The translations under genes were made by a program, and so were the position numbers. From Staphylothermus hellenicus DSM 12710 (lineage in GTDB: Archaea; Thermoproteota; Thermoprotei_A; Sulfolobales; Desulfurococcaceae): DNA of 32,000 nt. A model generated the notes under the pieces. That model was given only the letters and a program-made list of their open reading frames with translations, had not been told where the DNA came from and ran no database searches. The stretch is taken from positions 330,001 through 362,000 of the forward strand of contig NC_014205.1 in NCBI RefSeq assembly GCF_000092465.1, given 5' to 3'. Below, piece by piece: positions 2,785 through 29,266 of the stretch (the first letter of the stretch is position 1; every line of letters starts with the position of its first letter).

Positions 2785-4026
2785 ATGATAAGCAATACTC
2801 ATCTCAAAATCGCCGGGTTAATCCTGATAGTACTGGTAGCATTATCGATGATCTCATTGCCGGCATCACTTGTACTAGCCGGCGATGGACAAGGGAAAGA
2901 AGAAAATGGAGGACTAGATGAAAATATTAGGGTAAGATTCAACTTAACAATGTCATTTAATGAAGCACTGGATCTAGCGTATACTGTTAGAAATGTTTCA
3001 TATCCAATGTTTGAATGGGGACAAACACAAAACATTACATTAGCTAACACATTGCTTAGACATGGAGATAGTCTCTTAGAGAAAGCAATCAATATGAGTA
3101 GTACAAATGAGACAAAAGCGACATTATTAGCACTAGCTGCTGCAGCAATATATAGTAGAGCACCTATAGTGGCGTATCCAGTGCTCGGAAAAACTATTAG
3201 GAATAATCTCGGAGAAAACCGTAGCTTAACAAATAATACGGTTTTAGCAGTAATTGGGAAAGCCGAGGAGATAAAGAATTTAATCAGTGAAGCCAAGAAT
3301 ATCTCTGCACAATTCAATATAACGCCTCTAAGAATAGTTGATTTCCTAGTAGCTGATGCGACTGGGAAGATAAACACTAGTCTACAATTATTAGAGATGA
3401 ACTATACTGGACGCGCACTAAGTTATGCTGTGAGAGCATATCATGAATACATAAGAGCATATACATGGATTATTAAATCAGTATTCATTGAAAAACTAAA
3501 TCTCGGCGAAACACCAAGAATTACAGAGAAAATAATCATTAAAAAAGTTGATAAGAAAGTAATGGAGAAACTAATTGAGCACATGCCTAGATGGATCAAA
3601 GCTAAAATAATGGAAAAGCTTCGAAAAGGCTTGATCAAAGATATTGTAGACTTAAGAAGACATGTTAGATTAATAGTTAAGATATACAAGGAAAGACTCG
3701 AAAACATAACAGCAGACCAAATAACTAAAACAGCTGTCTTAGTCATAATCGCCGGCTCTAAATTGCCGGGAAAGCAGGGACAAGCAATTAAAGAATGGAG
3801 ATCTAAGCATAGATTATACAATCCTAGATCACTATACAACTATACATTATCAATAGTGAAAAAGGTTCAAAACGAAACCAACGCTACAGGAATAGATTTA
3901 CTAGAACAAGTATTGCATCAGTTAGAGATAAACATAGAGAATGATACAGGCATACATGTAGATCTTACACAAGTATTAAACATAATAATAACAATACATG
4001 TAATACGACACGGCCCCCGTCATTAA
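2785..4026 (+). CDS. Secreted or membrane-anchored, predicted all-helical glycoprotein (413 aa), function unknown
   Basis: N-terminal hydrophobic signal/anchor (LKIAGLILIVLVALSMISLPASLVLAG). About 16 N-x-S/T sequons. Heptad-like Lys/Glu/Ile-rich helices. SD-like GGAGGG upstream. Confidence 0.6.
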   Translation: MISNTHLKIAGLILIVLVALSMISLPASLVLAGDGQGKEENGGLDENIRVRFNLTMSFNEALDLAYTVRNVSYPMFEWGQTQNITLANTLLRHGDSLLEKAINMSSTNETKATLLALAAAAIYSRAPIVAYPVLGKTIRNNLGENRSLTNNTVLAVIGKAEEIKNLISEAKNISAQFNITPLRIVDFLVADATGKINTSLQLLEMNYTGRALSYAVRAYHEYIRAYTWIIKSVFIEKLNLGETPRITEKIIIKKVDKKVMEKLIEHMPRWIKAKIMEKLRKGLIKDIVDLRRHVRLIVKIYKERLENITADQITKTAVLVIIAGSKLPGKQGQAIKEWRSKHRLYNPRSLYNYTLSIVKKVQNETNATGIDLLEQVLHQLEINIENDTGIHVDLTQVLNIIITIHVIRHGPRH

Positions 4027-4092: not shown

Positions 4093-4917
4093 ATGAGTAG
4101 ATCTGCTGTTTTTGCATTATTGATAATTGTGTTCTTGGTATTAGGTACTAGTATTTATTGTAATGCACAGAACATGGACGACAATGTTAGGGGAATAAGT
4201 ATTAAGATAGTATATGATCCATACATGGATTATGGAATAGTGACTTACGAGATATTATTTTCTAAAACAATGGAGAATACAATAATTGATCTACCACTTG
4301 TAGCAGACAACATTAACGACATCATAAATGTTACGGGAAGCGAGGGCCAAGTATTTCCATACACTTATATCAACGAGAATACATCCATATCAATACTGAT
4401 CAACAATACGGATACATTGATAATTACTTATGAAATATCAGGGTTCATGGACGAGGTTGGAATAGATGCTTATAGTGGAATATTGGATTTATCTCTACTG
4501 AGCGGTATGAATGTTTCCGTCGAAATAGTGTTGCCCAGTGTTTTCAATGTTTCAACGGAGCCTAGAAGTAGTTATGTAGAATACGATGATGGATTAACGA
4601 TTATAAAAATAAATAATCCAGGCATTTACGCAGTATATGTTGAGAAATCATTACTTGCAACAACTACTACAATCAGCCCACCCACCACCACAACAACACC
4701 TGCCCCATTGTCATCTATTACTTCTACAACCACTACAACTACTACTACCCCATCAACCACTACTGTATCATCACATTCCATGACCACTACAACGAGCCCG
4801 ACTTCCCCAAATACTGTATCGCCTAGAGAAACAGTTGGATTATCACCATTCATGATAGGATTAATTATTGCCGTCATAGTGATTATTGTATTGATCGCCT
4901 TATTGCTAAGGAGATAA
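4093..4917 (+). CDS. Cell-surface protein: signal peptide, beta-rich ectodomain, Thr/Ser/Pro stalk, C-terminal TM anchor
   Basis: Signal peptide MSRSAVFALLIIVFLVLGTSIYCNA. About 160 aa globular region with sequons. 55-aa T/S/P tract. C-terminal helix FMIGLIIAVIVIIVLIALLLRR. The ectodomain aligns with that of the next gene (LIITYEISGFMDEVGIDAYSGILDLS vs VLVRYAIYNYLDEIGVGVYGLLIDLS). Confidence 0.7.
   Translation: MSRSAVFALLIIVFLVLGTSIYCNAQNMDDNVRGISIKIVYDPYMDYGIVTYEILFSKTMENTIIDLPLVADNINDIINVTGSEGQVFPYTYINENTSISILINNTDTLIITYEISGFMDEVGIDAYSGILDLSLLSGMNVSVEIVLPSVFNVSTEPRSSYVEYDDGLTIIKINNPGIYAVYVEKSLLATTTTISPPTTTTTPAPLSSITSTTTTTTTTPSTTTVSSHSMTTTTSPTSPNTVSPRETVGLSPFMIGLIIAVIVIIVLIALLLRR
4660..4824 (+). 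repeat. Low-complexity ACN/TCN/CCN codon tract encoding a Thr/Ser/Pro-rich stalk
   Basis: Residues 190-244 of the 4093 ORF: TTTTISPPTTTTTPAPLSSITSTTTTTTTTPSTTTVSSHSMTTTTSPTSPNTVSP. Confidence 0.8.
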
Positions 4918-8715: not shown

Positions 8716-9948
8716 TTAATCTGTTACTAGTATTTGATTAAATTTCCTATATGCAATCCTAATAATTTCGATAAGGATTAGTATAAGCGATATATCGAAA
8801 ATGATAACGAATATTGCATCAGAAAGTGATAATACTCCTCTCTCTTCAACAGTCAAGCCTTTTAACCCTATAAGATCGTTTGTCTCATGGAGCTTGATCG
8901 GCGATCCTCTGAGTTTAATTCTTACATTCTGAGGTTTATCAAAGATTCCTGATACATATAATACTATTGTTGAAGCATTATACTTTACCAAGTCTATATT
9001 TGAATATTTAATATCTGTTTTACTATCTAGTAACAATAATACTCTATATGGTGCATAACTAGTAATATTAAGTTGGATAGTTTCATTTATAACAGATACA
9101 TCCATTTGGATATTTGTATATGATGTATTTAATCCTATAAAGCCTATTTTTCCAATACTTCCTGTCTTGCCATATGTGAAGAAAGTTGAATTAGTTATTA
9201 TAATTTTTGATAATCCCTGTCCTAAGCCATTGTTTATTATAAGTATTTTTTCTCTAATGTATCCTAAGTTATGCCTATTATATGTGATCTCATAATAATA
9301 TAGTGGAATACTCGTTATTATTTCACGGTACATACTGACTGTATCCATGTAACTCGTATTCTCGAGACTGCCCAAATAATAATATTTTATCTCGTAACAA
9401 TAGACATCATCAAAGATTGTTATACCTGTTACATCTCCGTTTCTACCAGTTTTCGTCAAGGTAGCAGAGAAATTTTTAAGTTTCAGTTTTATCATTGGAT
9501 CCACTGAATTTGATGATTCCCTAAAGGTCTTGTTTACGAGTTTGTCCATGGATTTATTAATTGCTTCTATAATTGATTTCTTAACATTATTACCACTAAC
9601 AATGAAACTGGTTAATTTATATTCGTAATCATATATTTCACTATTAGGGTGAAACGTGACATTTATAGCTATCTCGTATGCTATGCTTAACCTAATTGTT
9701 CCGCTTAGACTTTTTTGTAACATATATTTACTAGCATAGATCCCTGAAGCCTCTAATGTATACATTGCAATATATAAGCCTGAAACTTTGAAATTATTGC
9801 TGCCGGATTCCTTACTATAATTAATTGGTTGAGCATACAATGATTTGTTCCCGAAAACTATGCTGGGACTTATTATATTAAATAGAATAACTAGGAAGAT
9901 AATCAACCATGATGTTTTCTTAGATGATCCTTTTAAAACACTAGCCAA
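8716..9948 (-). CDS. Surface glycoprotein, N-terminal signal peptide and C-terminal TM anchor (410 aa), function unknown
   Basis: Signal WLIIFLVILFNIISPSIVFG. Many N-x-S/T sequons. C-terminal helix AIFVIIFDISLILILIEIIRIAY. TTG start. Confidence 0.6.
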   Translation of the reverse strand: MASVLKGSSKKTSWLIIFLVILFNIISPSIVFGNKSLYAQPINYSKESGSNNFKVSGLYIAMYTLEASGIYASKYMLQKSLSGTIRLSIAYEIAINVTFHPNSEIYDYEYKLTSFIVSGNNVKKSIIEAINKSMDKLVNKTFRESSNSVDPMIKLKLKNFSATLTKTGRNGDVTGITIFDDVYCYEIKYYYLGSLENTSYMDTVSMYREIITSIPLYYYEITYNRHNLGYIREKILIINNGLGQGLSKIIITNSTFFTYGKTGSIGKIGFIGLNTSYTNIQMDVSVINETIQLNITSYAPYRVLLLLDSKTDIKYSNIDLVKYNASTIVLYVSGIFDKPQNVRIKLRGSPIKLHETNDLIGLKGLTVEERGVLSLSDAIFVIIFDISLILILIEIIRIAYRKFNQILVTD

Positions 9949-11783: not shown

Positions 11784-12959
11784 ATGGTTTTAAAAATTGG
11801 TTTTGCAAGCACTTATCCCCCTACTCATTGTGGGGTTGGAGAATATTCTCGTATGCTTATTACTGCTTTGAAGAGTTTGTATCCACGTATAAAAGCATAT
11901 GTGTTTGCTGATAAGAGGGGTGGGGATAGGAGATTTGATGAATTAGCCAAAGTAGATATTATACCGAGTTTTGAACATGAGGAAACTAGTTATAGGAAAT
12001 TATTAGATAATCTTGCTCTTATTGATGGTGTTGATATTTTACATGTACAGCATGAATATGGTATTTTCGGTAAACATAATGGTTTAATAGAAGCTGTTGA
12101 GGAAGCTAGAGAGGAGAGGCTTGTAGGGAAAATAGTTATAACAATGCATACTGTTGATCATCCATACACTCTTAGATCAGGGACATTAGAGTTTCAAAGA
12201 CAACTAAACAAATTTGATGCGATAATAGTTCATAGTGCTCTACAGGAATTTGAACTAATACATCAGGGAATTGATCCATCTAAAATTATAAGAATACCGC
12301 ATGGAACCCTCTTAAACCCATATCTATGGTTGCCTAGATTCAAATTAGCGGAATCACTAGGAATATCTGAGGAACAACTAGTAGGATTCTTAATTGGTGT
12401 CCCGGGATTTCTTAGAAAAGATAAAGGCTTAGATATTCTCGTAAAAGCTGTGAAGCCTCTCCTACATGATGGGGATTACACGGTTATTGTTGCTGGAGAA
12501 ACAAGAGACCCTGTGTTGAGAAAGGAGCTCGAGGAAATGGTTAGGAATGGACCCAACATGATCTTTATAGAGAGATGGTTGACAAGCGAGGAGATACTGA
12601 AACTTGTTGCATTAGTAGATGCTGTTGTCTTACCCTATAGGGATAGGCCAGCATCATATTCTGTCTCCGGCATATTACACTTATCAATGGGCGGGTTAAA
12701 ACCTATTATTGGTACTAGGGCTCCGAGATTGATAGAACTATATCATCATGCGCCGAGAATGACTGTTCCAGTTAGAAACCCTGATGAGCTAACAAGGAAA
12801 ATTAGATGGTTAAGGATAAACTATGATGTAGCAATAGCGTATATGAGCAGTCTTTACAGCTATGCTGTTAGGACGGAATGGCGTAGAACAGCTAGAAGGC
12901 ATCTATCTCTCTATGCCTACGTTTTAGGCATTGAAAAATCTATTCTTTCAGGAGAATAG
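11784..12959 (+). CDS. Glycosyltransferase, GT-B fold (family 4-like)
   Basis: N-terminal FASTYPPTHCGVGEYS. C-terminal nucleotide-sugar-binding region (VIVAGETRDP...LVALVDAVVLPYRD). Strong SD GGAGAGGTGA upstream of the ATG. Confidence 0.8.
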   Translation: MVLKIGFASTYPPTHCGVGEYSRMLITALKSLYPRIKAYVFADKRGGDRRFDELAKVDIIPSFEHEETSYRKLLDNLALIDGVDILHVQHEYGIFGKHNGLIEAVEEAREERLVGKIVITMHTVDHPYTLRSGTLEFQRQLNKFDAIIVHSALQEFELIHQGIDPSKIIRIPHGTLLNPYLWLPRFKLAESLGISEEQLVGFLIGVPGFLRKDKGLDILVKAVKPLLHDGDYTVIVAGETRDPVLRKELEEMVRNGPNMIFIERWLTSEEILKLVALVDAVVLPYRDRPASYSVSGILHLSMGGLKPIIGTRAPRLIELYHHAPRMTVPVRNPDELTRKIRWLRINYDVAIAYMSSLYSYAVRTEWRRTARRHLSLYAYVLGIEKSILSGE

Positions 12960-12978
12960 CCTGGAAGAGGAGATATAT

Positions 12979-13557
12979 ATGGTGGAAATCATGGAGATCT
13001 GTAAGATCAATTATAGGGGAGTAGTGGTCAGGGGGGTTAGGGGAGATATTACAGAACTAGATGTTGAAGCCATAGTTAACCCGGCTAACAGCTCGATGTT
13101 GATGGGCGGCGGTTTAGCAGGGGTTTTGAAGAGGAAGGGTGGAGAAATTATTGAGAATGAAGCAAAGAAGTTTGCACCAGTACCTGTCGGTAAGGCTGTT
13201 GTAACAATTGCCGGCGCGTTAAGGGCTAAATACATTATTCATGCACCAACAATGGAGAAGCCCGCTATGAGGATTAAGCCGGAAAACGCATATAAAGCAA
13301 CATTTGCTGCTCTCACAAAAGCATTTGATTTATCATTGAATAAGATAGCAATACCAGGTATGGGAACAGGTGTTGGTGGATTATCTCCTAGTGACGCAGG
13401 CAAAGCTATGGCTAAAGCAATAAAGGAGTTCCTAGACCTAGTTCCTTCAGGAATCAAAGAAATACTCATAGTTGACTTGAACCCTGAAATACCCAGGATG
13501 GTTTGTAGATCCTTGGAGGAAATGATCGGGGAAACAGGAAATGAATATCAAAGTTAA
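12979..13557 (+). CDS. Macro-domain protein (ADP-ribose / O-acetyl-ADP-ribose binding or hydrolase, AF1521-like)
   Basis: GDITELDVEAIVNPANSSMLMGGGLAGVL, IIHAPTM and IAIPGMGTGVGGL motifs. I prefer ATG 12979, which is preceded by GGAAGAGGAG, over the track start 12931. Confidence 0.85.
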   Translation: MVEIMEICKINYRGVVVRGVRGDITELDVEAIVNPANSSMLMGGGLAGVLKRKGGEIIENEAKKFAPVPVGKAVVTIAGALRAKYIIHAPTMEKPAMRIKPENAYKATFAALTKAFDLSLNKIAIPGMGTGVGGLSPSDAGKAMAKAIKEFLDLVPSGIKEILIVDLNPEIPRMVCRSLEEMIGETGNEYQS

Positions 13558-13807
13558 ATATATGCTTTGGCTACGCGAGAAAATAGGATTAGAACAAGAA
13601 GAATTCAAGCTGGATAGAGAGACTAGTTTAGAAGACTTGGTAAGAATTATTATTTTAAAACATAGAGAAGCAGAGAAATATTTAAGCAATATATTTAGCG
13701 ATGATAATCCCTTCATAATACTTGTCAATGGAATACCTAGAAAGAAAAACTATATACTAAAAGATAATGACTTAGTCACAATTCTCCCCCCAGTATCAGG
13801 AGGATAG
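13541..13807 (+). CDS. MoaD/ThiS-family ubiquitin-like small protein with C-terminal Gly-Gly
   Basis: 88 aa. Begins MNIKVKYMLWLREKIG and ends ILPPVSGG-stop. The start overlaps the macro-domain gene by 17 nt. Confidence 0.8.
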   Translation: MNIKVKYMLWLREKIGLEQEEFKLDRETSLEDLVRIIILKHREAEKYLSNIFSDDNPFIILVNGIPRKKNYILKDNDLVTILPPVSGG

Positions 13808-13923: not shown

Positions 13924-14628
13924 ATGGATTATTTGTTTGAACTTGTTCCTTGGAAAAAGAAATTAATAGATGAAATAGTAGATTTAGCAAGAGATTTCTT
14001 CAGTATTTATACTATTCCGGAAGGCCCTGGAGGTTATCCCGGCATATATAGTTTAGCTACTGCAATGTATCTTAAATACAAATATGATCTAAAAGCGTTT
14101 CCTCATATAAGACTATATGATATAAACAGATTAGCGCTCTTATCAATTGCTAATGCTGTAGAAGCATATGGTCTTGAAGGATTAGTGCTTCTTCGAGGAG
14201 ATAAGCCTTGGAAAGGAATAATAGTTGAGGATATAGGTACTGAGGAAGCATTGAGCCTGCTTAAAAAGAAAGGCTACAGGTTTGAGAAGGGGGCAATTAT
14301 TAGCCTGAGATACCCTTATGAGAAGATAATTGAGAGAATAAGGCTTGGAGCAGATTTTTACCATGTAATAAACTATGATGCAAGTAAAGACCAGTTGCTT
14401 ACCAGGATTTATAGGGAAGCTAATAGGCTGGGTGTGAAAATATATGTATTTATTCTTTTAGGGATCGGTGGGAATAAAGGATTATTTGCCAAGCTTAATC
14501 AGCCATATATAAGTCCCGGGGAGTTAAAGGATCGTTTGGAAGCGTTGAGGAATATGTGTGATGGTGTGGTATTATCTACTCCATTAGAGCCTTTAGAGGG
14601 CATACGTGTATTTATGAAGTATGCATGA
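13924..14628 (+). CDS. Methylenetetrahydrofolate reductase (MetF)-like protein, short form
   Basis: FPHIRLYDINRLALLSIANAVEAYGLEGLVLLRGDKP matches the MetF signature (pHLtcrD.nr....L......Gi.n.LaLRGD.P). TIM-barrel-sized ORF. SD GGTGA upstream. Confidence 0.6.
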   Translation: MDYLFELVPWKKKLIDEIVDLARDFFSIYTIPEGPGGYPGIYSLATAMYLKYKYDLKAFPHIRLYDINRLALLSIANAVEAYGLEGLVLLRGDKPWKGIIVEDIGTEEALSLLKKKGYRFEKGAIISLRYPYEKIIERIRLGADFYHVINYDASKDQLLTRIYREANRLGVKIYVFILLGIGGNKGLFAKLNQPYISPGELKDRLEALRNMCDGVVLSTPLEPLEGIRVFMKYA

Positions 14629-15615
14629 CTAGTTCTTTTGGAGAAGCTTTACTATATTAATTATTCTATGCAGCTTCTCTAATCCTATATGGTATGCTTC
14701 ATATGGATCGCCTGACTCGGTAGCTAATCCGCCGAAGCCGCAGTCTGCTGAGACCAGGTCTATTCTCCACATGGTTTTTTCACCTATCTTCCTAAGTAAA
14801 TCGCTTAGTTCCTCATATGATTCAATAACTGGTTTCTTAGCACTGGCTATTCCAGGGGCTAGAACTTTGTTGTTCTCCTCTAATAGGTTAGGATTTATTG
14901 ATTCAATATTCATTGAGTTATCGTGGAATTCGAAGTTTAGAATGTCTAGTTTATCGGTGATTGCTAGTGTTTCGAAGAGTTTAGGAGATATTCTCCCGCA
15001 TACATGTATACCGTGTTCTCCCGGTGCTTGCGAAAATATGTGATTTATTGTTTCTATGATTTCTTCTTTTGAGAAGCCAAATAGTATTCTTCTCTTACCA
15101 ACGATAATTCCGAGAACAGGTTCATCAATGAATAATATGTTATAGCCTAGTTTGCCCATATACATGATGTGTTTTCTAACATATTCTATAATGTATTCTA
15201 GCAGTGTTTTTTCTCGGAGAAGTGTTCCATGTAATCCCACGCTTATGTCTTTGGATAAATATATTCTAGATGCTAAGGTATAGGCTCCTGTCACAGGTGC
15301 TCTGAGCCATTTAAAACCATATTTTTTCTCCCTGAGATACTTGATCATGTATTCTGCTTCATAAATACTTGGCTCAAAATATTCTATATCTTTCAATGAC
15401 TCCTTAGAATCTAGGAAATAAAATCCATTCTTTTCTTTTAATAATCCATTGTCTGCTAGGGGCTTGAGATATATGTCTATAAAGCTTCTTAGTTGAGGAT
15501 AGGGTGGGGCATCCAGTTTAATTCTCCATAGATCATCTATTATTATCCTAAGATTATCTAAACTGTGAGGAAGGGGGAAGCTTCCCACATGGCTTGTCCT
15601 TATCTTCCCATGCAT
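14629..15615 (-). CDS. Core-MetE-like zinc-dependent thiol methyltransferase (cobalamin-independent methionine synthase catalytic-domain family)
   Basis: N-terminal TSHVGSFPLP. Zinc ligand motifs GIHVCGR (HxC) and VSADCGFGG. Its 328 aa size equals a single MetE catalytic barrel. Confidence 0.8.
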   Translation of the reverse strand: MHGKIRTSHVGSFPLPHSLDNLRIIIDDLWRIKLDAPPYPQLRSFIDIYLKPLADNGLLKEKNGFYFLDSKESLKDIEYFEPSIYEAEYMIKYLREKKYGFKWLRAPVTGAYTLASRIYLSKDISVGLHGTLLREKTLLEYIIEYVRKHIMYMGKLGYNILFIDEPVLGIIVGKRRILFGFSKEEIIETINHIFSQAPGEHGIHVCGRISPKLFETLAITDKLDILNFEFHDNSMNIESINPNLLEENNKVLAPGIASAKKPVIESYEELSDLLRKIGEKTMWRIDLVSADCGFGGLATESGDPYEAYHIGLEKLHRIINIVKLLQKN

Positions 15616-15710
15616 TCTCGGTCACTTGTTGAGTTTTTAATAATATGTGTTTTTCTCGGAATAAATGCTTATAGTAATAAATAGTATCGTTATAGGTTAG
15701 GTGCGGTGAT

Positions 15711-16382
15711 GTGGGTGTTGAGGAGTTATTTGATAAGCTCTACAGTTGTCTTGTAGATTTGGATAAAGACTGTGTATTGGATAATGTTCAAAAATTATTG
15801 GAGAAGGGGGTTAAAGCTATAGATATTGTGCTTGGACCCATGAGTAAAGCTATGGAGAAGATTGGCAGACTATATGAGGAGGGAGAATACTTTATAGCAG
15901 AACTTATGGAGGCGGCGGACATATTTAAGGAAGCAATGAAGATACTTGAGCCTCGGCTAAGAATGGAAGCTAAATCTATGGCTTCTGGTAGGAAGAGGCT
16001 AAAAATAATACTGGCAACTGTTAAGGGCGATATACACGATATCGGTAAAACCCTTGTAGGAGTTATGCTGCAAGCAGCTGGGCACGAAGTAATTGATCTA
16101 GGTGTGGATGTTGATGCAGAAAAAATAATTGATGCAATCAAAAAATATAAGCCGCAAATAATTGGTTTAAGCGCCTTATTATCTACTACTGCGAGATATA
16201 TGAGAGTGATAATTGAAGAGTTGGAAAAGAATGGTTTAAGGGGGAAAGTAAAAGTTTTAGTTGGAGGAGCAGCTACTACTAGTGAGTTCGCGGAAAAAAT
16301 CGGTGCAGGTGGCTGGGCTCCGAACGCGATCGAGGCTGTAAAGCTAGTGAATAAGATTGCCGAGGAGTATAGGGATGCATAG
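15711..16382 (+). CDS. Corrinoid (B12-binding) protein, MtaC/MtbC/MetH-B12-domain type
   Basis: N-terminal helical cap followed by a Rossmann B12 domain. It has DxHxxG (GDIHDIGK), SALLSTT and VLVGGAA motifs. GTG start. Confidence 0.9.
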   Translation: MGVEELFDKLYSCLVDLDKDCVLDNVQKLLEKGVKAIDIVLGPMSKAMEKIGRLYEEGEYFIAELMEAADIFKEAMKILEPRLRMEAKSMASGRKRLKIILATVKGDIHDIGKTLVGVMLQAAGHEVIDLGVDVDAEKIIDAIKKYKPQIIGLSALLSTTARYMRVIIEELEKNGLRGKVKVLVGGAATTSEFAEKIGAGGWAPNAIEAVKLVNKIAEEYRDA

Positions 16383-18012
16383 AAAATGTGAAGAAGTAAC
16401 TATAAATGTTGTCGGTTATGGAAAAATATCTGCGTGTAAAGGGGATAATCTAGGAGAAATACTAGCGTCAAAAGGGATCATGCCATTACCATGTGGTGGT
16501 AGAGGATTATGTGGATTATGTAGGGTAAAAGTATATGGAGAAACTAATCCTATCACAGGAAACGAAATTGTTCATGGACTAAGTGGGAATGAAAGACTAG
16601 CTTGCCAAGTAATAGTGATGGGGGATCTGGTTGTTGAAGCTGAGAAGCCTAGAATAATTAGTGTTCCAAGATACTCGATAAATATTCCGCTTAAACAAAT
16701 AAACCCAGTAATCAATATTGTTCGTTTAGAAAAGCCACCATATATAAACAAGGACTATGTAGTAATAAATGGGTTGAAACCATCTAACTATATATTATTA
16801 GAAGACATGATCCTATCCACAACAGGTGATCCGGAGAAAATATTATTGGTTGATCTTGGAACAACCAAGATAGCGTATCAAGCGGTAACAATGAGTGGAG
16901 AAGTAATTGGTGAGAAAATACATATTAACCCGCTCAACATTTACGGCTCAGACATAATTACGAGAATAACCCATATTCTAGAAAAACCTGAAAGCCTCCG
17001 GGAAATGGGTTCTTCGCTTAGAAAAGAAGTGAACAATGTTGCTGAAGAATATAATATTGGATCAATATTTATTGCTGGGAACAGCGTTATGGAGCATCTA
17101 TATCTAGGGTTGCCAATAGAAACATTAGCGGAGAAACCATTTCAACCACTATTCCACGGCCCCTTCTTAACATATACATATGATAAGCCAACAATACTGG
17201 CTCCCCTAATAGCTGGCTATGTTGGAGGAGATGCTTATTCCGAACTAATAGCTTCTCTTAAACTAGCATTGAAGAAGCCATATATGATTATAGATTTGGG
17301 GACAAATACTGAGGTATTACTTGTAACAAATGATAAAATATATGCTACAAGCACACCTGCCGGACCCGCCTTTGAGGGGCACTTAGCTAGAGGATCAACA
17401 ATTGTCTATGGTGGAATATATAAGGTTGAAATTATTGGTTCAAGAAATAGCGAGCCTGTTTTCAACTATAAATATATTCATAAACCATACGGGTTGCTTG
17501 GAACAGGAATTATTAGCTTAGTTGCCGAGCTTCTCCGCCATAAATACATTGATGAAAGAGGCAGGTTTCTCAAAGGCTATAAACGCATCAATAATGTTAA
17601 AACATATGTTATAGATAAGGATCAACAAATATTCTTTACACAGAAGGATTTAAGGGAGTTCCAGAAAGCTTATGCAGCTGTTAAAACAGCTTGGATAATA
17701 CTGTGTAGGAGAGCTGGGATTAAATGTGAAGATTTAGAACACGTAATTATTGCTGGAAGTTTTGGCTCAAACATTGAGTCTAGAGATCTTATTGATTTAG
17801 GCCTTGTACCTGTAGTAGAGAATAGTAGGTTAGTATATGCTGGAAACATGGTTTTGTCTGGTTTGAAAATTATGATGCTTGATTCCAGCATGTTCAAGAT
17901 ATATAGGTCTATTCTGGAGAAGATTGCTCATATAAACTTGGCTGAGGACAAAGACTATATGAAGACATGGATTAAATGTTTAAACATAGTTTCACTTAGA
18001 GGTAGCAAATAG
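16375..18012 (+). CDS. Reductive activator of corrinoid enzymes (RACE/RACo-like: N-terminal [2Fe-2S] ferredoxin + ASKHA ATPase, DUF4445)
   Basis: Plant-type ferredoxin Cys pattern CGGRGLCGLCRV...ERLACQ. ASKHA phosphate motifs (LVDLGTTKIA, IIDLGTNTE). ATG 16375 overlaps the stop of the corrinoid protein gene (ATGCATAG). Confidence 0.85.
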   Translation: MHRKCEEVTINVVGYGKISACKGDNLGEILASKGIMPLPCGGRGLCGLCRVKVYGETNPITGNEIVHGLSGNERLACQVIVMGDLVVEAEKPRIISVPRYSINIPLKQINPVINIVRLEKPPYINKDYVVINGLKPSNYILLEDMILSTTGDPEKILLVDLGTTKIAYQAVTMSGEVIGEKIHINPLNIYGSDIITRITHILEKPESLREMGSSLRKEVNNVAEEYNIGSIFIAGNSVMEHLYLGLPIETLAEKPFQPLFHGPFLTYTYDKPTILAPLIAGYVGGDAYSELIASLKLALKKPYMIIDLGTNTEVLLVTNDKIYATSTPAGPAFEGHLARGSTIVYGGIYKVEIIGSRNSEPVFNYKYIHKPYGLLGTGIISLVAELLRHKYIDERGRFLKGYKRINNVKTYVIDKDQQIFFTQKDLREFQKAYAAVKTAWIILCRRAGIKCEDLEHVIIAGSFGSNIESRDLIDLGLVPVVENSRLVYAGNMVLSGLKIMMLDSSMFKIYRSILEKIAHINLAEDKDYMKTWIKCLNIVSLRGSK

Positions 18013-18927
18013 TTTCTGGACTTTTCTAAGTATTTTCTTTATTGGATGAATACTAGAGATTCTTTCTCCTTTTCTTCTAAGACTATATCCAAGCAATGAA
18101 TCAGCCATGGCTATTGCTGGGGCAATATATTTTATTCTGGACACAGGGCCATACATGATATAATCTGCTCCATGGATTCTTAAATAAACAGCAACACCTC
18201 CATGCACACCATACATTTCTCCAATACTGGTTTTAGACTTAGATACGGGTCCAAGCGCGTTAGCTGGTGCACAACCACTTGGATACCCGAATCTCTTTTT
18301 GGCTTCAAATATTGTTTCAGCACTAAACGCTATACTTGCAGGATCGATTACTATAGCGTCAACAATAACTTGTTCAACACCGCTTTTCCTGGCGAGGGAC
18401 AGTAGGGTGGTTTCGAGAAGCCTTAGCCTCTCCAAAGGACTGATCGACTTCAACGGGTTTCTAGGATCAAAAGCCATTATTACCGATGTTTTTATCCCGC
18501 TATCTCTTAATGCATTTATCTCCTCCTCGGGGCTATCTATGAAGATCCCATTAGCTATTACTCTATCATTTATTCCGAGCTCTTTAGCCGCTAGATAGCT
18601 TTTAGCTCTAATAACTGGGTCTGGGCTATCAAGGAATATGGGGATATCATATTCTGATATAAATGGCAGTATCTTATCTATACTTTCAATACTGGGGAAT
18701 ACAACGTCTAATCCAAAAACTAACGAGTAGTTTTCAGCAATACTTATAGCTTCCTCGATTTTTGCTTTAGCTTTTTCCTTATCAAAATCTCCTTTTTCAC
18801 TAAGTAAAAGCTTGTCTCCAAGATAAAATATTGATCCAATAAGCCATACAGGATTTTTACCTGGCTTACCGCCTATTATATATTTACCAATTCTATACTC
18901 TAACTGCTTAGTCCATTCATCATACAT
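17992..18927 (-). CDS. MtrH-family pterin-binding methyltransferase (methyl-H4MPT/H4folate:corrinoid methyltransferase-like)
   Basis: IGGKPGKNPVWLIGSIFY, FLDSP, MAFDP and YGPV...APAIAMAD follow the MtrH pattern. I prefer ATG 18927 (MYDEW...), which gives the same spacing to the IGG motif as methanogen MtrH and follows GGTGG. The track GTG start is 18954. The 3' end overlaps the RACE gene by 21 nt. Confidence 0.85.
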   Translation of the reverse strand: MYDEWTKQLEYRIGKYIIGGKPGKNPVWLIGSIFYLGDKLLLSEKGDFDKEKAKAKIEEAISIAENYSLVFGLDVVFPSIESIDKILPFISEYDIPIFLDSPDPVIRAKSYLAAKELGINDRVIANGIFIDSPEEEINALRDSGIKTSVIMAFDPRNPLKSISPLERLRLLETTLLSLARKSGVEQVIVDAIVIDPASIAFSAETIFEAKKRFGYPSGCAPANALGPVSKSKTSIGEMYGVHGGVAVYLRIHGADYIMYGPVSRIKYIAPAIAMADSLLGYSLRRKGERISSIHPIKKILRKVQKLFATSK

Positions 18928-18997
18928 TGTAGTTTTACCACCCACGTGTTTCACATATTTCTATAGAATATAATTACTTGAATAAAGACTTATTGGA

Positions 18998-19151
18998 GAA
19001 GATCAGCATTCGTTCCCCCAAGCATCACCCCCGATTCTCGAGGGCTTCATCAAAGACCAATTCTCATCATTTCAATATAGGGATCCGCGGAGTGGGCTCG
19101 TGCATCCCCCTCTAAGCGGGGTTTTCGAGTGCGTAACTTCTTCATCTCCCC
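18998..19151 (-). ncRNA. GC-rich composite structured RNA with C/D-like termini and internal C-box-like motifs (unknown class)
   Basis: Minus-strand read: GGGGAG-AUGAAGA...(internal AUGAUGA at 19070-19064, UGAUGA, hairpin CCCUCGA-GAA-UCGGGGG, GUGAUG)...CUGA (19006-19003)-UCUUC. The 5' GGGGA can pair with the 3' UCUUC. GC-rich island between the MATE stop and the MtrH promoter. The only ORF here (19100..19303 +) is implausible. It could be two adjacent RNAs (about 19080-19151 and about 19000-19075). Confidence 0.4.
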
Positions 19152-22665: not shown

Positions 22666-22793
22666 GCCGCCGTAGCTCAGCCCGGTAGAGCGCCGGCCTT
22701 GTAAGCCCGGAGGTGTCAAGGAACTAATTCAGGCCCGTACAATACATGGGCCGGGGGAGCCGGTGGTCGCGGGTTCAAATCCCGCCGGCGGCT
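22666..22793 (+). tRNA. tRNA-Thr (anticodon UGU) with a 54-nt intron at the canonical 37/38 position
   Basis: Acceptor GCCGCCG/CGGCGGC, U8, D arm GCTC-AGCCCGGTA-GAGC, anticodon stem CCGGC/GCCGG, loop CUUGUA^A, T arm GCGGG-TTCAAAT-CCCGC, discriminator U, no encoded CCA. The intron 22704-22757 forms a full hBHBh' motif: central helix C32-G, U33.G, U34.G, G35-C; two 3-nt bulges; a 5-bp intron helix GCCCG/UGGGC. Confidence 0.88.
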
Positions 22794-27673: not shown

Positions 27674-29266
27674 ATGAATATACTGGACCCTGAATCTTTC
27701 TATTTAGCATCAATATTTATCCGGGAAGCAATTTACCGTAGTCTATCCCGTTACCGTGTTAGGAGGGGAATACATGGTTATCTCGTAAAACTCCTGATGC
27801 CTAGTATAGATGATAAAGTATTAGTCTATAATATGAAATGGTTTGTAACGGGGATGATGAGTGGATTATTTATTGGTTTATGGATACCAATAGTATCTTA
27901 TGGTTCAAACCTTGTAGGATTACCTAGTATCTCAAAAGCTTTCATAGCATCCTACCTAATTATGGCTATGCTAATATCTATAGTGATTATTCTAGATCTT
28001 ATATATCAAGTAACAGCTTCAATCCGCGACCTTGGAATAACTAAGCCTATAGAATATATGCCGATCAAGTATGAAAGCATCGAGAAAGCGGCTTCATACA
28101 GTATCATTGTTGGAGGAGGACTAAGTCTCTTATTAGGTACTGGATTATCTATTGGTATAATGGCATCTATTGTTCTAAAATCATTTCCGCCTATGATTAT
28201 GATGCCATTAGGTTTTGCATCATTGGTCTTCTTAGTTTATCCCTTAACAATAATTATTTATTCAAGGATTAAGCCGGGAACTAATTCATTGGTATCTTTA
28301 GCAATATACTTATTTGTTATTATAACAGTATTATCCTTCTACGTATACTTTATGGGTTTAGGCTCTAGATACATGGTTCTCTCAGTTATTAGGGACTACA
28401 TGTTTATTTTCCCAATCCCTTATGTTTATGCTTCAATAAACGGTTTTGATCCGGAATCGACACTGTATTGTCTACTATACTTCGTCATCGGACTTGTATC
28501 TTCACTATATATTCCGAGAAAATACGGAGTTAAAATAATCTGGTTTCAGAGAAAAAGCTACGGTAATAGTAAGAGGATCCTCTCTAGATCGAAGATTATT
28601 ACTTTAGGACTAAAAGATCTATATTTGCTGATCAGGGATCATACTCGGCAAAAACAATTTTATGGCGAATTAGCCGCTGTTCTAACACCTTTATATATTC
28701 CATTATTTAATCCCGCTGTACAATCTTTTCTGAAAGCATTGAATAGTGTTAGTTCAATTGTTCTTATTGGTTTATATGGTTTAATAGCTTATATTTTAGC
28801 AGTGATAACTGTTCCAATCCTTATTTTCGTCGAGGCTGATAGGAATAAGTTACTCTATGCTTATCCGCTTAGTAGGGAAGAAGTTGTTTTAGGAAAAACC
28901 ATTGCCTCAACAATATTGTTTTTTCCAATACCATTTATTTCTCTAATAATTGTATCATTTCTTATCTCGTGGCTGCATGGCTTAATAGTTTTCTATACAT
29001 TTATCTCATACTGGGTTAGCGGAGCATACTTATCTAATTCTCTAATACTTCGTTTTCTCTGGGGTAGACTTGATGCTTGGACAGAGCTTAGTCTGGGTAT
29101 TGTTAGAAGGCTATTATTATTGTTTATTTTATCTATTCCATTAATGTTTTTTACACCTTTGATCTTATTCTTTTTTGTTTTCAAGCCGCAAATAGCACTA
29201 TATTTACTCCTATTATCCCCTCTACCAATCAATATATACGTCGGTATTAGAACCTTAACCACATAG
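27674..29266 (+). CDS. Large polytopic membrane protein, presumptive permease partner of the ABC ATPase
   Basis: 530 aa with more than 12 hydrophobic helices. It starts 4 nt after the ATPase stop. No family motif recognised. Confidence 0.65.
   Translation: MNILDPESFYLASIFIREAIYRSLSRYRVRRGIHGYLVKLLMPSIDDKVLVYNMKWFVTGMMSGLFIGLWIPIVSYGSNLVGLPSISKAFIASYLIMAMLISIVIILDLIYQVTASIRDLGITKPIEYMPIKYESIEKAASYSIIVGGGLSLLLGTGLSIGIMASIVLKSFPPMIMMPLGFASLVFLVYPLTIIIYSRIKPGTNSLVSLAIYLFVIITVLSFYVYFMGLGSRYMVLSVIRDYMFIFPIPYVYASINGFDPESTLYCLLYFVIGLVSSLYIPRKYGVKIIWFQRKSYGNSKRILSRSKIITLGLKDLYLLIRDHTRQKQFYGELAAVLTPLYIPLFNPAVQSFLKALNSVSSIVLIGLYGLIAYILAVITVPILIFVEADRNKLLYAYPLSREEVVLGKTIASTILFFPIPFISLIIVSFLISWLHGLIVFYTFISYWVSGAYLSNSLILRFLWGRLDAWTELSLGIVRRLLLLFILSIPLMFFTPLILFFFVFKPQIALYLLLLSPLPINIYVGIRTLTT

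Follow-up and report, generated by a model that had tools for sequence, protein, structure and literature searches.

A stretch of 32,000 nucleotides from the genome of Staphylothermus hellenicus DSM 12710 (here called the window) contains five adjacent genes that quite probably encode the components of a corrinoid-dependent methionine synthase. Read in this way, their sequences describe a multi-component counterpart of MetH that is put together from separate and mostly non-homologous proteins: a MetF-like protein with the predicted fold of methylenetetrahydrofolate reductase (MTHFR), a MetE-like zinc enzyme, a corrinoid carrier protein, a reductive activase of the RACo type and a pterin methyltransferase of the MtrH/MtgA family. 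In the proposed cycle the miniature MTHFR-like protein would reduce methylene-pterin to methyl-pterin, and the MtrH/MtgA-like barrel would then methylate the Co(I) corrinoid that is held His-on by the carrier of 223 amino acids (aa). The MetE-like enzyme would activate homocysteine as a zinc thiolate, and transfer of the methyl group to homocysteine would yield methionine. Co(II) that arises accidentally would be reduced to Co(I) by the RACo-type activase via its [2Fe-2S] cluster and with ATP. The donor-side methyltransferase would be exchangeable depending on the lineage, MtrH-like in the window and MttB-like or URO-D-like elsewhere. The main role of the system is probably the remethylation of homocysteine that stems from S-adenosylmethionine (SAM)-dependent methylation, in a peptide fermenter without purine synthesis. 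An earlier note on this DNA had suggested that an MtrH-type enzyme and a corrinoid protein feed a core-MetE enzyme for methionine synthesis; profiles, structures and the co-conservation of the genes support this suggestion at the level of predicted function.

S. hellenicus belongs to the Desulfurococcales and is not a methanogen. Four of the gene products (MetF-like protein, MetE-like protein, corrinoid protein and activase) are identical to the proteins ADI31518-ADI31521 of this strain, and Staphylothermus marinus F1 has a MetE-like protein that is at least 90% identical to the one from S. hellenicus. The positions of the genes are given in Table 1. They are joined by a zero-nucleotide (zero-nt) convergent junction of the MetF-like and MetE-like genes at 14628/14629, by ATGCATAG at 16375-16382, where the ATG of the activase overlaps the stop codon of the corrinoid protein, and by a convergent 21-nt overlap of the activase and MtrH-like genes at 17992-18012. 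Promoters for both directions are presumed to lie in the intergenic region of 95 bp from which the MetE-like and the corrinoid gene diverge. The deposited activase is the 545-aa form that starts from the ATG at 16375. The 320-aa open reading frame (ORF) of the MtrH-like protein with its GTG start is not among the deposited proteins and the homologues comprise 305-315 aa; therefore, translation probably starts from the ATG at 18927 (Met10), which would give 311 aa, rather than from the GTG at 18954. GenBank labels the genes one by one as ‘methionine synthase II (cobalamin-independent)-like’, ‘MTHFR’, ‘cobalamin-binding protein’, ‘ASKHA domain protein’ and ‘MtrH’; the denomination ‘cobalamin-independent’ for the MetE-like gene is probably misleading. 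The earlier note had listed the five ORFs, the three tight junctions and a non-methanogenic archaeal host, and all of these are as described there. The motifs it named (LRGD, HxC...C, DxHxxG, the [2Fe-2S] cysteines and DxGT of the ASKHA domain) are all found as well. Its statement that the order of the module matches the domains of MetH had to be dropped: the MtrH-like gene comes last and on the opposite strand, and the set of components alone corresponds.

The MetE-like protein (328 aa) passes the Pfam model Meth_synt_2 (PF01717) with 24.5 bits at a cutoff of 21, and many of its homologues have a precomputed PF01717 match. No match to Meth_synt_1 was obtained in the Pfam search. On the curated methionine synthase models it reaches 30.8 bits with PRK04326 (cutoff 406), 37 bits with PRK06052 (cutoff 387) and 50.6 bits with PRK00957 (cutoff 258), and 15 diverse members of its family are all weak on curated models, the best E-value being 1e-23. 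The protein thus stands outside the methionine synthases curated in NCBIfam, and its comparison with the MesA-D prototypes is an indirect one. Seven residues are invariant in a 15-sequence alignment of the family, namely S12, Q41, D164, H204, C206, E229 and C292. In the profile alignment to MetE from T. maritima the residues H204, C206, E229 and C292 fall on the zinc ligands (reference positions H641, C643, E665 and C726 of the Escherichia coli enzyme), D164 in the motif IDEP falls on the aspartate that binds the amino group of homocysteine and Q41 in the motif PPYPQ on the position of Glu484 (motif HGE). The homocysteine-binding reference positions of E. coli are S433, E484 (or Gln) and D599, and S12 of the MetE-like protein is found within HVGSFP. 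The same set of residues served as the argument for regarding MesA-D as methionine synthases; in MesA and MesC the position of Glu484 is likewise occupied by Gln (Price 2021, PMC7857596). In a Foldseek search against the PDB with the AlphaFold model (predicted local distance difference test, pLDDT, 95.2) the top 25 matches are all methionine synthase barrels, and the MtaA and URO-D folds rank below them. The best match is 3RPD (E 1.3e-12), a MesD-type core enzyme that was solved with selenomethionine. On the basis of the modeled fold and the conserved residues we conclude that the MetE-like protein truly belongs to the core-MetE type, in a family that appears distinct from those curated at NCBI, and we propose it as a putative methylcorrinoid:homocysteine methyltransferase.

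The MtrH-like protein matches the Pfam family MtrH (PF02007) with 141.9 bits over residues 17-294, which cover profile positions 3-293 of 299. It remains under the equivalog cutoffs (given in brackets) of PRK00979 with 215.7 bits (287), of the MtgA model NF047990 with 177.9 bits (550) and of TIGR01114 with 125.1 bits (271.4). The closest solved structure is the methylcorrinoid:tetrahydrofolate methyltransferase 6SJ8 from D. hafniense (168 bits), followed by MtrH of the Mtr complex with 104-133 bits. By these profile scores it is a divergent branch of the MtrH family that is nearer to MtgA (6SJ8) than to MtrH of the Mtr complex. The genes mtrA-G are absent from the window, and it is the genes for the corrinoid protein and the activase that adjoin the MtrH-like gene. 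As its function we propose a putative methyl-pterin:corrinoid-protein methyltransferase.

The corrinoid protein is recognized by the Pfam models B12-binding (97.8 bits) and B12-binding_2 (66.1 bits), and its signature for base-off/His-on binding of the corrinoid is complete (D107-x-H109-x-x-G112, S154-x-L and G185-G). The closest solved relatives are corrinoid proteins of acetogens and methanogens and related domains (1Y80, 4JGI, MttC and the B12 domain of MetH). The activase has the domain composition of the RACo/AcsV type with an N-terminal [2Fe-2S] ferredoxin, the RACo middle part and a C-terminal ASKHA ATPase. Its Pfam scores are 186.5 bits for RACo_C_ter, 83.5 bits for Raco_middle and 20.4 bits for Fer2, the last one being 0.6 below the cutoff. 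With the AcsV model it reaches 201 bits, below the exception-level cutoff of 800, and the closest solved structure is RACo from C. hydrogenoformans (3ZYY, 137 bits). The cysteines of the [2Fe-2S] cluster are Cys40, Cys46, Cys49 and Cys77, and the ASKHA motifs are DLGTT160 and DLGTN307.

The MetF-like protein is the most difficult component to assign. It has no Pfam match, and with TIGR00676 it yields 25.3 bits over residues 15-107 at a cutoff of 293.7. A profile search against the PDB gave E-values of 0.27-0.66 over 65 residues. A proof from the sequence only that this protein is an MTHFR thus failed, there being no Pfam match and PDB profile E-values of 0.3-0.7. The AlphaFold 2 model is a beta/alpha barrel (pLDDT 93.1, predicted template modeling score 0.91), and in the Foldseek comparison with the PDB all top 50 matches are MTHFRs, including the flavin-independent mycobacterial enzyme, with E-values from 1.4e-9 to 9e-7, query TM-scores (TMq) of 0.62-0.76 and sequence identities of 12-18%. 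In the profile-to-PDB alignment PHiRLyD...LRGDkP of the MetF-like protein is superposed on PHLTGID...ALRGDEP of MetF. The LRGD motif comprises R91-D93, and D93 therefore corresponds to the catalytic Asp. Only 17 relatives of the MetF-like protein were found, and in these homologues E6, H61, R91, G92 and D93 are invariant. E6 is located at the end of strand 1, which, judged by its position, we take to be the place of Glu28 in the E. coli enzyme. Assignment as MTHFR-like is supported by the modeled fold, the two motifs and the gene context. Together, profile and structure searches support all five assignments of the earlier note (MtrH, core-MetE, corrinoid protein, RACo and MTHFR-like protein), and Pfam supports four of the five.

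Whether these genes belong together can be read from their distribution. Taking the MetE-like gene as anchor we collected 80 genome loci, mostly from Desulfurococcales with a few from Bathyarchaeia, and two further loci (L081 and L082), which makes 82; as a partner we counted any gene of the corrinoid system located not more than 6 kb from the MetE-like gene. At least one partner is present in 53 of the 82 loci and in 27 of the 44 that offer at least 6 kb on both sides, and all four partners are present in 13 loci. It is the corrinoid gene that lies within this distance in most of the linked loci. In L081 and L082 the MetF-like protein is only 42% identical, yet the order and orientations of the five genes are the same. 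Thermogladius has the same set of genes in another order, with the MetF-like gene moved beside the MtrH-like gene, and in three further loci (L030, L035 and L044) a co-directional operon of MetF-like, MetE-like, corrinoid and activase genes is found. With the MetF-like gene as anchor 17 loci were obtained from metagenomes. Ten of them extend past the gene and are informative, the remaining seven being truncated, and in all ten the MetE-like gene is placed convergently beside it. In these ten loci, then, the MetF-like family always occurs together with a MetE-like gene. The block of five genes is inverted as a unit between S. hellenicus (13924-18954) and the distant relative L081 (8001-13062) while the flanks are the same: the Macro-domain and ThiS-like genes border it on one side, and on the opposite side a GC-rich element precedes DUF998, NMD3, AsnC and ADK. 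This suggests that the block behaves as a cassette. The arrangement, which was met again in dozens of genomes and contigs from metagenomes, is far beyond chance. Co-conservation in related genomes, which the earlier note had put forward as a check, is thus seen across the Desulfurococcales despite the shuffled order of the genes and the inverted block.

It has to be considered that the MetE-like enzyme serves an acceptor other than homocysteine. The five genes would then represent a corrinoid-dependent methyltransferase system with, for example, the precursor of a cofactor, a thiol of low molecular weight or a cysteine residue in a protein as acceptor, and no methionine would be made. The family is an outlier (31-51 bits against curated cutoffs of 258-406, besides the score with Meth_synt_2 mentioned above), the related URO-D/MtaA fold is known to methylate coenzyme M, two members of the MetE-like family weakly match MtaA-type models, and some MesC-like proteins were doubted on the basis of their residues (Price 2021, PMC7857596). 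We nevertheless regard this explanation as unlikely since all seven homocysteine and zinc positions of MetE and MesA-D are kept, among them the Ser and Asp in contact with the amino acid moiety. Furthermore, the structure that matches best, solved with selenomethionine, is that of a core methionine synthase, and the obligate linkage with an MTHFR-like gene fits the classical pairing of metF with methionine synthase.

The direction of the methyl flow can be judged from loci in which the MtrH-like enzyme is replaced. In ten loci (L043, L045, L067, L036, L042, L047, L022, L032, L071 and L034) a methyltransferase of the MttB superfamily is encoded between the MetE-like gene and the corrinoid gene. 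It matches PF06253 with 262 bits and TIGR02369 with 315 bits, the latter under the equivalog cutoff. A RACo gene is found within 6 kb in seven of these ten loci, and an MtrH-like gene is nearby in none of them. Characterized members of the MttB superfamily are donor-side enzymes that methylate Co(I) from their substrate. Six further loci possess a URO-D-family methyltransferase of 427-432 aa; four of these (type L027) are without MtrH, and two (type L048) carry a canonical MtrH in addition. These variants come from other Desulfurococcaceae, from Zestosphaera and from genomes related to Ignisphaera. The MetE-like and the corrinoid protein, usually together with the activase, are the constant chassis while the other methyltransferase varies. 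Because an MttB-type methyltransferase 1 (MT1) replaces MtrH in ten loci, the MetE-like enzyme must fill the slot on the acceptor side (methyltransferase 2, MT2) there. The two variants imply that the methyl group of methionine can come directly from quaternary amines or from another methyl donor.

These loci bear directly on a catabolic, substrate-specific demethylase comparable to the three-component O-, N- or S-demethylases, for which the same parts would work backwards. The MetE-like enzyme would be the MT1 that acts on methionine, a methylthiol or another methyl compound, the MtrH-like enzyme would deliver the methyl group to the pterin and the MetF-like protein would oxidize it into the one-carbon (C1) pool, to be used for biosynthesis or energy. 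Indeed an MT1, a corrinoid protein, an MtrH-like MT2 and RACo make up exactly the architecture of the Mto and Mtg systems, in which the MtrH-like enzyme methylates pterins, and metagenomic papers usually interpret the mtrH-corrinoid clusters of non-methanogens in this way. Both half-reactions are reversible in principle and methionine is abundant for peptide fermenters. The earlier note had considered demethylation as equally possible; the loci with MttB in place of MtrH and the invariant homocysteine-binding residues speak otherwise. In a catabolic system the ten loci that have an MttB-type MT1 and no MtrH would contain two donor-side enzymes and no acceptor, and the invariant residues for the homocysteine backbone together with the zinc thiolate site are those of biosynthetic enzymes. 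The enzymology of MetH has established that passing a methyl group from methyl-pterin on to homocysteine is strongly exergonic, and demethylation of a thioether onto a pterin would by the same energetics be very unfavourable. A catabolic flow would also require genes for the further oxidation of C1 units, but those for methylene-pterin dehydrogenase, cyclohydrolase or formyl-handling enzymes are not present in the window. According to its description S. marinus ferments peptides, reduces sulfur and lacks purine synthesis; its demand for C1 units is therefore little and it would have little use for those released by demethylation. We thus judge the catabolic direction as decidedly improbable. 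The best reading is a methyl flow from pterin via corrinoid to homocysteine, based on the invariant homocysteine site, the obligate MTHFR-like partner, the exergonic transfer and the MttB loci.

That the MetE-like protein could be an ordinary cobalamin-independent synthase, for instance the catalytic subunit of a split MetE that takes the methyl group directly from a methyl-pterin, and has an unrelated corrinoid system only as its neighbour agrees with its GenBank label, with about one third of the family members being solitary and with the view of Price et al. that many ‘core’ MetE proteins of thermophilic archaea are catalytic subunits of split MetE, but this is very improbable since no gene for Meth_synt_1 (the N-terminal, pterin-binding part) was found in the window or next to those solitary homologues that were examined, since the linkage with corrinoid, activase and methyltransferase genes persists through rearrangement, inversion and partner swaps in many genomes, and since none of the three curated ‘methionine synthase’ model cutoffs is reached.

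Several observations weigh against a corrinoid-dependent methionine synthase. With about 60 residues fewer than MTHFR and no evident partner that donates electrons, the MetF-like protein may be something other than a reductase. The match of the MetE-like protein to Meth_synt_2 is marginal and far under every curated methionine synthase model, and since its family is such a distant outlier a different thiol substrate is possible. Not all loci are complete: the three co-directional operons mentioned above have no MtrH within reach, other loci are without MtrH or RACo nearby, and about one third of the MetE-like genes with full flanks are solitary. In L030 an ORF of 324 aa occupies the position between the corrinoid and RACo genes where the MtrH-like gene is found elsewhere; it has no match in Pfam or NCBIfam and no similarity to the MtrH-like protein in BLAST. 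Finally, Staphylothermus grows on peptides and may need no net synthesis of methionine.

If the corrinoid-dependent methionine synthase is accepted, the question arises how it should be classified. We consider, at somewhat less than even odds, that the MetE-like proteins constitute a fifth, still unnamed family of core methionine synthases in Desulfurococcales and some other Thermoproteota, in which a chassis of MetE-like enzyme, corrinoid protein and RACo docks donor modules of MtrH, MttB or URO-D type. The MtrH-like module would be fed from the cellular C1 pterin pool by the miniature and possibly flavin-free MTHFR, and the MttB-type module would take the methyl group straight from quaternary amines.

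Since 1999 (Schroeder & Thauer) core-MetE enzymes of archaea are known to use methylcobalamin in vitro, and corrinoid proteins are predicted as donors in vivo (Deobald 2020, PMC7005905; Price 2021, PMC7857596). From phylogenetic co-occurrence MtrA was predicted as the donor of MesA and the corrinoid iron-sulfur protein (CoFeSP) as the donor of MesB and MesC (Price 2021, PMC7857596), while Chadwick 2022 stated that the methyl donor of core-MetE ‘remains unknown’. Similar to the MetE-like protein, core-MetE enzymes including MesA-MesC are single barrels of about 310-340 aa that lack the N-terminal pterin barrel and keep the zinc and homocysteine residues. A corrinoid donor is predicted for them as it is for the MetE-like protein, and MesA and MesC share with it the Gln at the position of Glu484. 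In contrast with MesA, predicted to draw on MtrA of the Mtr complex of methanogens, with MesB and MesC, predicted to draw on CoFeSP of the Wood-Ljungdahl pathway, and with MesD of aerobes that have MesX/DUF1852, the MetE-like protein is encoded together with its own corrinoid protein, an MtrH-like loader, an activase and an MTHFR-like gene. Genes for MtrA, AcsCD or DUF1852 were not found within the 32-kb window, the host being an anaerobic non-methanogenic peptide fermenter.

The logic of the proposed system is the same as in MetH and in split MetH of two or three parts with RamA/DUF1638 (Price 2018; PMC12478193), i.e. a pterin methyltransferase, a His-on carrier, a zinc enzyme for homocysteine and a reactivation device. 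The B12 domain of MetH is homologous to the corrinoid protein of S. hellenicus. The other modules differ: the homocysteine module is of the MetH/BHMT type (PF02574) in MetH and a MetE-type barrel here, the pterin is bound by a domain of its own in MetH and by an MtrH/MtgA-type protein here, and the reactivation with SAM and flavodoxin is replaced by an ATP-dependent RACo in a hyperthermophilic archaeal host. In Ruegeria MtgBCDE (PMC12478193) one corrinoid protein is common to the demethylation of betaine by a quaternary-amine MT1 and to methionine synthesis; this shared corrinoid protein parallels the MttB-linked variant loci described above. With MTHFR (MetF), including mycobacterial Mfr (8BGR), the MetF-like protein has in common the barrel fold, the LRGD motif with the catalytic Asp and the PH..D strand. 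It is distinguished from MTHFR by its length of 234 aa and by the segment that binds flavin, where an invariant PEGPGGYP motif is found.

The same parts are known from MtoABCD (Kurth 2021, PMC8630106) and from MtgABC of D. hafniense (6SJ8), with a soluble MtrH/MtgA enzyme, a corrinoid protein of about 22 kDa and a [2Fe-2S]/ASKHA activase. There too the genes are clustered and the cobalt cycles between Co(I) and CH3-Co(III) as proposed here. Both systems are catabolic, and the methyl group moves from the substrate via the corrinoid to the pterin, whereas in S. hellenicus a MetE-type homocysteine enzyme and an MTHFR-like gene on the donor side are present and the reverse flow is proposed. The MtrH-like enzymes MtoA (PMC8630106) and MtgA (6SJ8) are reversible with corrinoid proteins and pterins. 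The nearest precedent for the gene neighbourhood comes from Ca. Methanomethylicus, in which a couple of corrinoid protein and MtrH adjoins a metE homologue and an anabolic role was suggested in one sentence and a supplementary figure (Loh 2021, PMC7886697). These are the same three types of genes in a putative methanogen of another lineage. The MetF-like protein, the activase, the conserved residues, the distribution among genomes and the exchangeable donors are not covered in that work. The supposition of the earlier note that MtrH outside methanogens and linked to MetE is biochemically uncharacterized therefore holds in part: MtoA and MtgA (6SJ8) have been characterized, but the MetE-linked version has not, although its co-location was noted by Loh 2021. 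A search of the literature that combined MtrH, MetE/methionine synthase, corrinoid protein and MttB with Thermoproteota or Desulfurococcales gave no characterization of this linkage, and Price 2021 (PMC7857596) with its supplements contains no mention of Staphylothermus, Ignisphaera or Thermogladius. The parts are individually named in GenBank and the system as a whole is undescribed, with the co-location of corrinoid protein, MtrH and metE noted once before.

Some further features of the window have to be mentioned. The 231-nt spacer between the start of the MtrH-like gene and a MatE-family gene contains a GC-rich element, with about 50% GC where the background has 30-38%. In metagenome-assembled genomes of Staphylothermus it is 81-82% identical at the nucleotide level while the neighbouring proteins are only about 60% identical, and in a more distant relative it is still 72% identical. 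The element shows long stretches without variation, ATGATGA resembling a C box, CTGA at its end and a hairpin that varies between lineages; compensatory pairs are few. Rfam at the gathering threshold yielded only a tRNA in the window, and a permissive scan of the spacer upstream of mtrH gave nothing credible. Folding of the single sequence was no better than that of shuffled sequences. The element keeps its place and strand while the adjoining block of five genes is inverted. A riboswitch or leader RNA for the cluster was thus rejected, considering the missing Rfam match, the fold not above shuffled sequences and the fixed position despite the inversion. Probably the element is an independent small RNA and not a leader or cis-regulator, perhaps similar to C/D-box RNAs with atypical spacing.

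On the other side of the block a ThiS/MoaD-family protein of 88 aa that ends with GG (PF02597, 40 bits) is encoded, and its gene is paired with a Macro-domain gene. The ThiS-like gene lies beside the corrinoid cluster, on either side, in at least ten loci, and the Macro-domain gene accompanies it in most of them, Thermogladius being an exception. A role as sulfur carrier, e.g. in the synthesis of homocysteine or of a cofactor, is speculation; other genes that would support a role in homocysteine synthesis were looked for and none was found. Elsewhere in the window there is a tRNA-Thr gene with the anticodon TGT, which Rfam delimits with 128 nt and ARAGORN with 96 nt. Its length exceeds that of a standard tRNA and thus suggests the presence of an intron. 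For four sizeable ORFs (274-530 aa) Pfam gave no match at E <= 0.001.

Table 1. Positions of the genes and other features discussed in the text (window numbering; entries beginning with L refer to loci of other genomes)
Feature	Position	Strand	Remarks
MetF-like gene	13924..14628	+	234 aa, ADI31518; predicted miniature MTHFR-fold beta/alpha barrel
MetE-like gene	14629..15615	-	328 aa, ADI31519; single-barrel ‘core’ MetE-type zinc enzyme (predicted)
AT-rich divergent intergenic region	15616..15710	.	95 bp; separates MetE-like (-) from corrinoid gene (+)
Corrinoid (B12-binding) carrier gene	15711..16382	+	223 aa, ADI31520; MetH-type cap and Rossmann domain
RACo-type reductive activase gene	16375..18012	+	545 aa, ADI31521; ORF extends to 16357
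MtrH/MtgA-family pterin methyltransferase gene	17992..18954	-	320-aa maximal ORF, GTG at 18954
MttB-superfamily gene, example	L043:10984-12420	-	one of ten loci
URO-D-family gene, example	L027:12929-14212	-	linked to MetE-like, corrinoid and RACo genes
URO-D-family gene, example	L048:11096-12394	+	linked to MetE-like, corrinoid and RACo genes
ORF between corrinoid and RACo genes	L030:10035-11009	-	324 aa
GC-rich element	19002-19149	-	
GC-rich element elsewhere	L005:286-431, L006:114-259, L081:7777-7907, L082:136-266		
Macro-domain gene	12931-13557	+	
ThiS/MoaD-family gene	13541-13807	+	88 aa
tRNA-Thr (TGT)	22666-22793	+	
ORF without Pfam match	2785-4026	+	
ORF without Pfam match	4093-4917	+	
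ORF without Pfam match	8716-9948	-	
ORF without Pfam match	27674-29266	+	

The question about the donor of core-MetE enzymes, which is now 25 years old, becomes testable with five soluble proteins and with S. hellenicus, S. marinus and Thermogladius as cultured organisms. If the proposed function is true, a MetH-like enzyme would have arisen convergently from non-homologous parts, and with a chassis that docks different donor modules the carrier described here would be the first corrinoid protein to be identified as the physiological partner of an archaeal core-MetE. Predictions of methionine synthesis would have to be corrected for many Thermoproteota, and the same holds for mtrH-corrinoid genes that are now read as signs of methylotrophy or as remnants of methanogenesis. 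In a survey none of four Desulfurococcales genomes contained the pathway of B12 biosynthesis, while three of the organisms use B12 and one has an ‘other’ B12-dependent methyltransferase (Zhang et al. 2009); the cobamide must therefore be salvaged, and the proposed synthase would reveal a requirement for B12 in organisms that are unable to make it. Together with the MttB and URO-D variants it would mean that methyl groups from different donors are routed straight into methionine, and that heterotrophic hyperthermophiles make methionine directly from methylated compounds of their environment.

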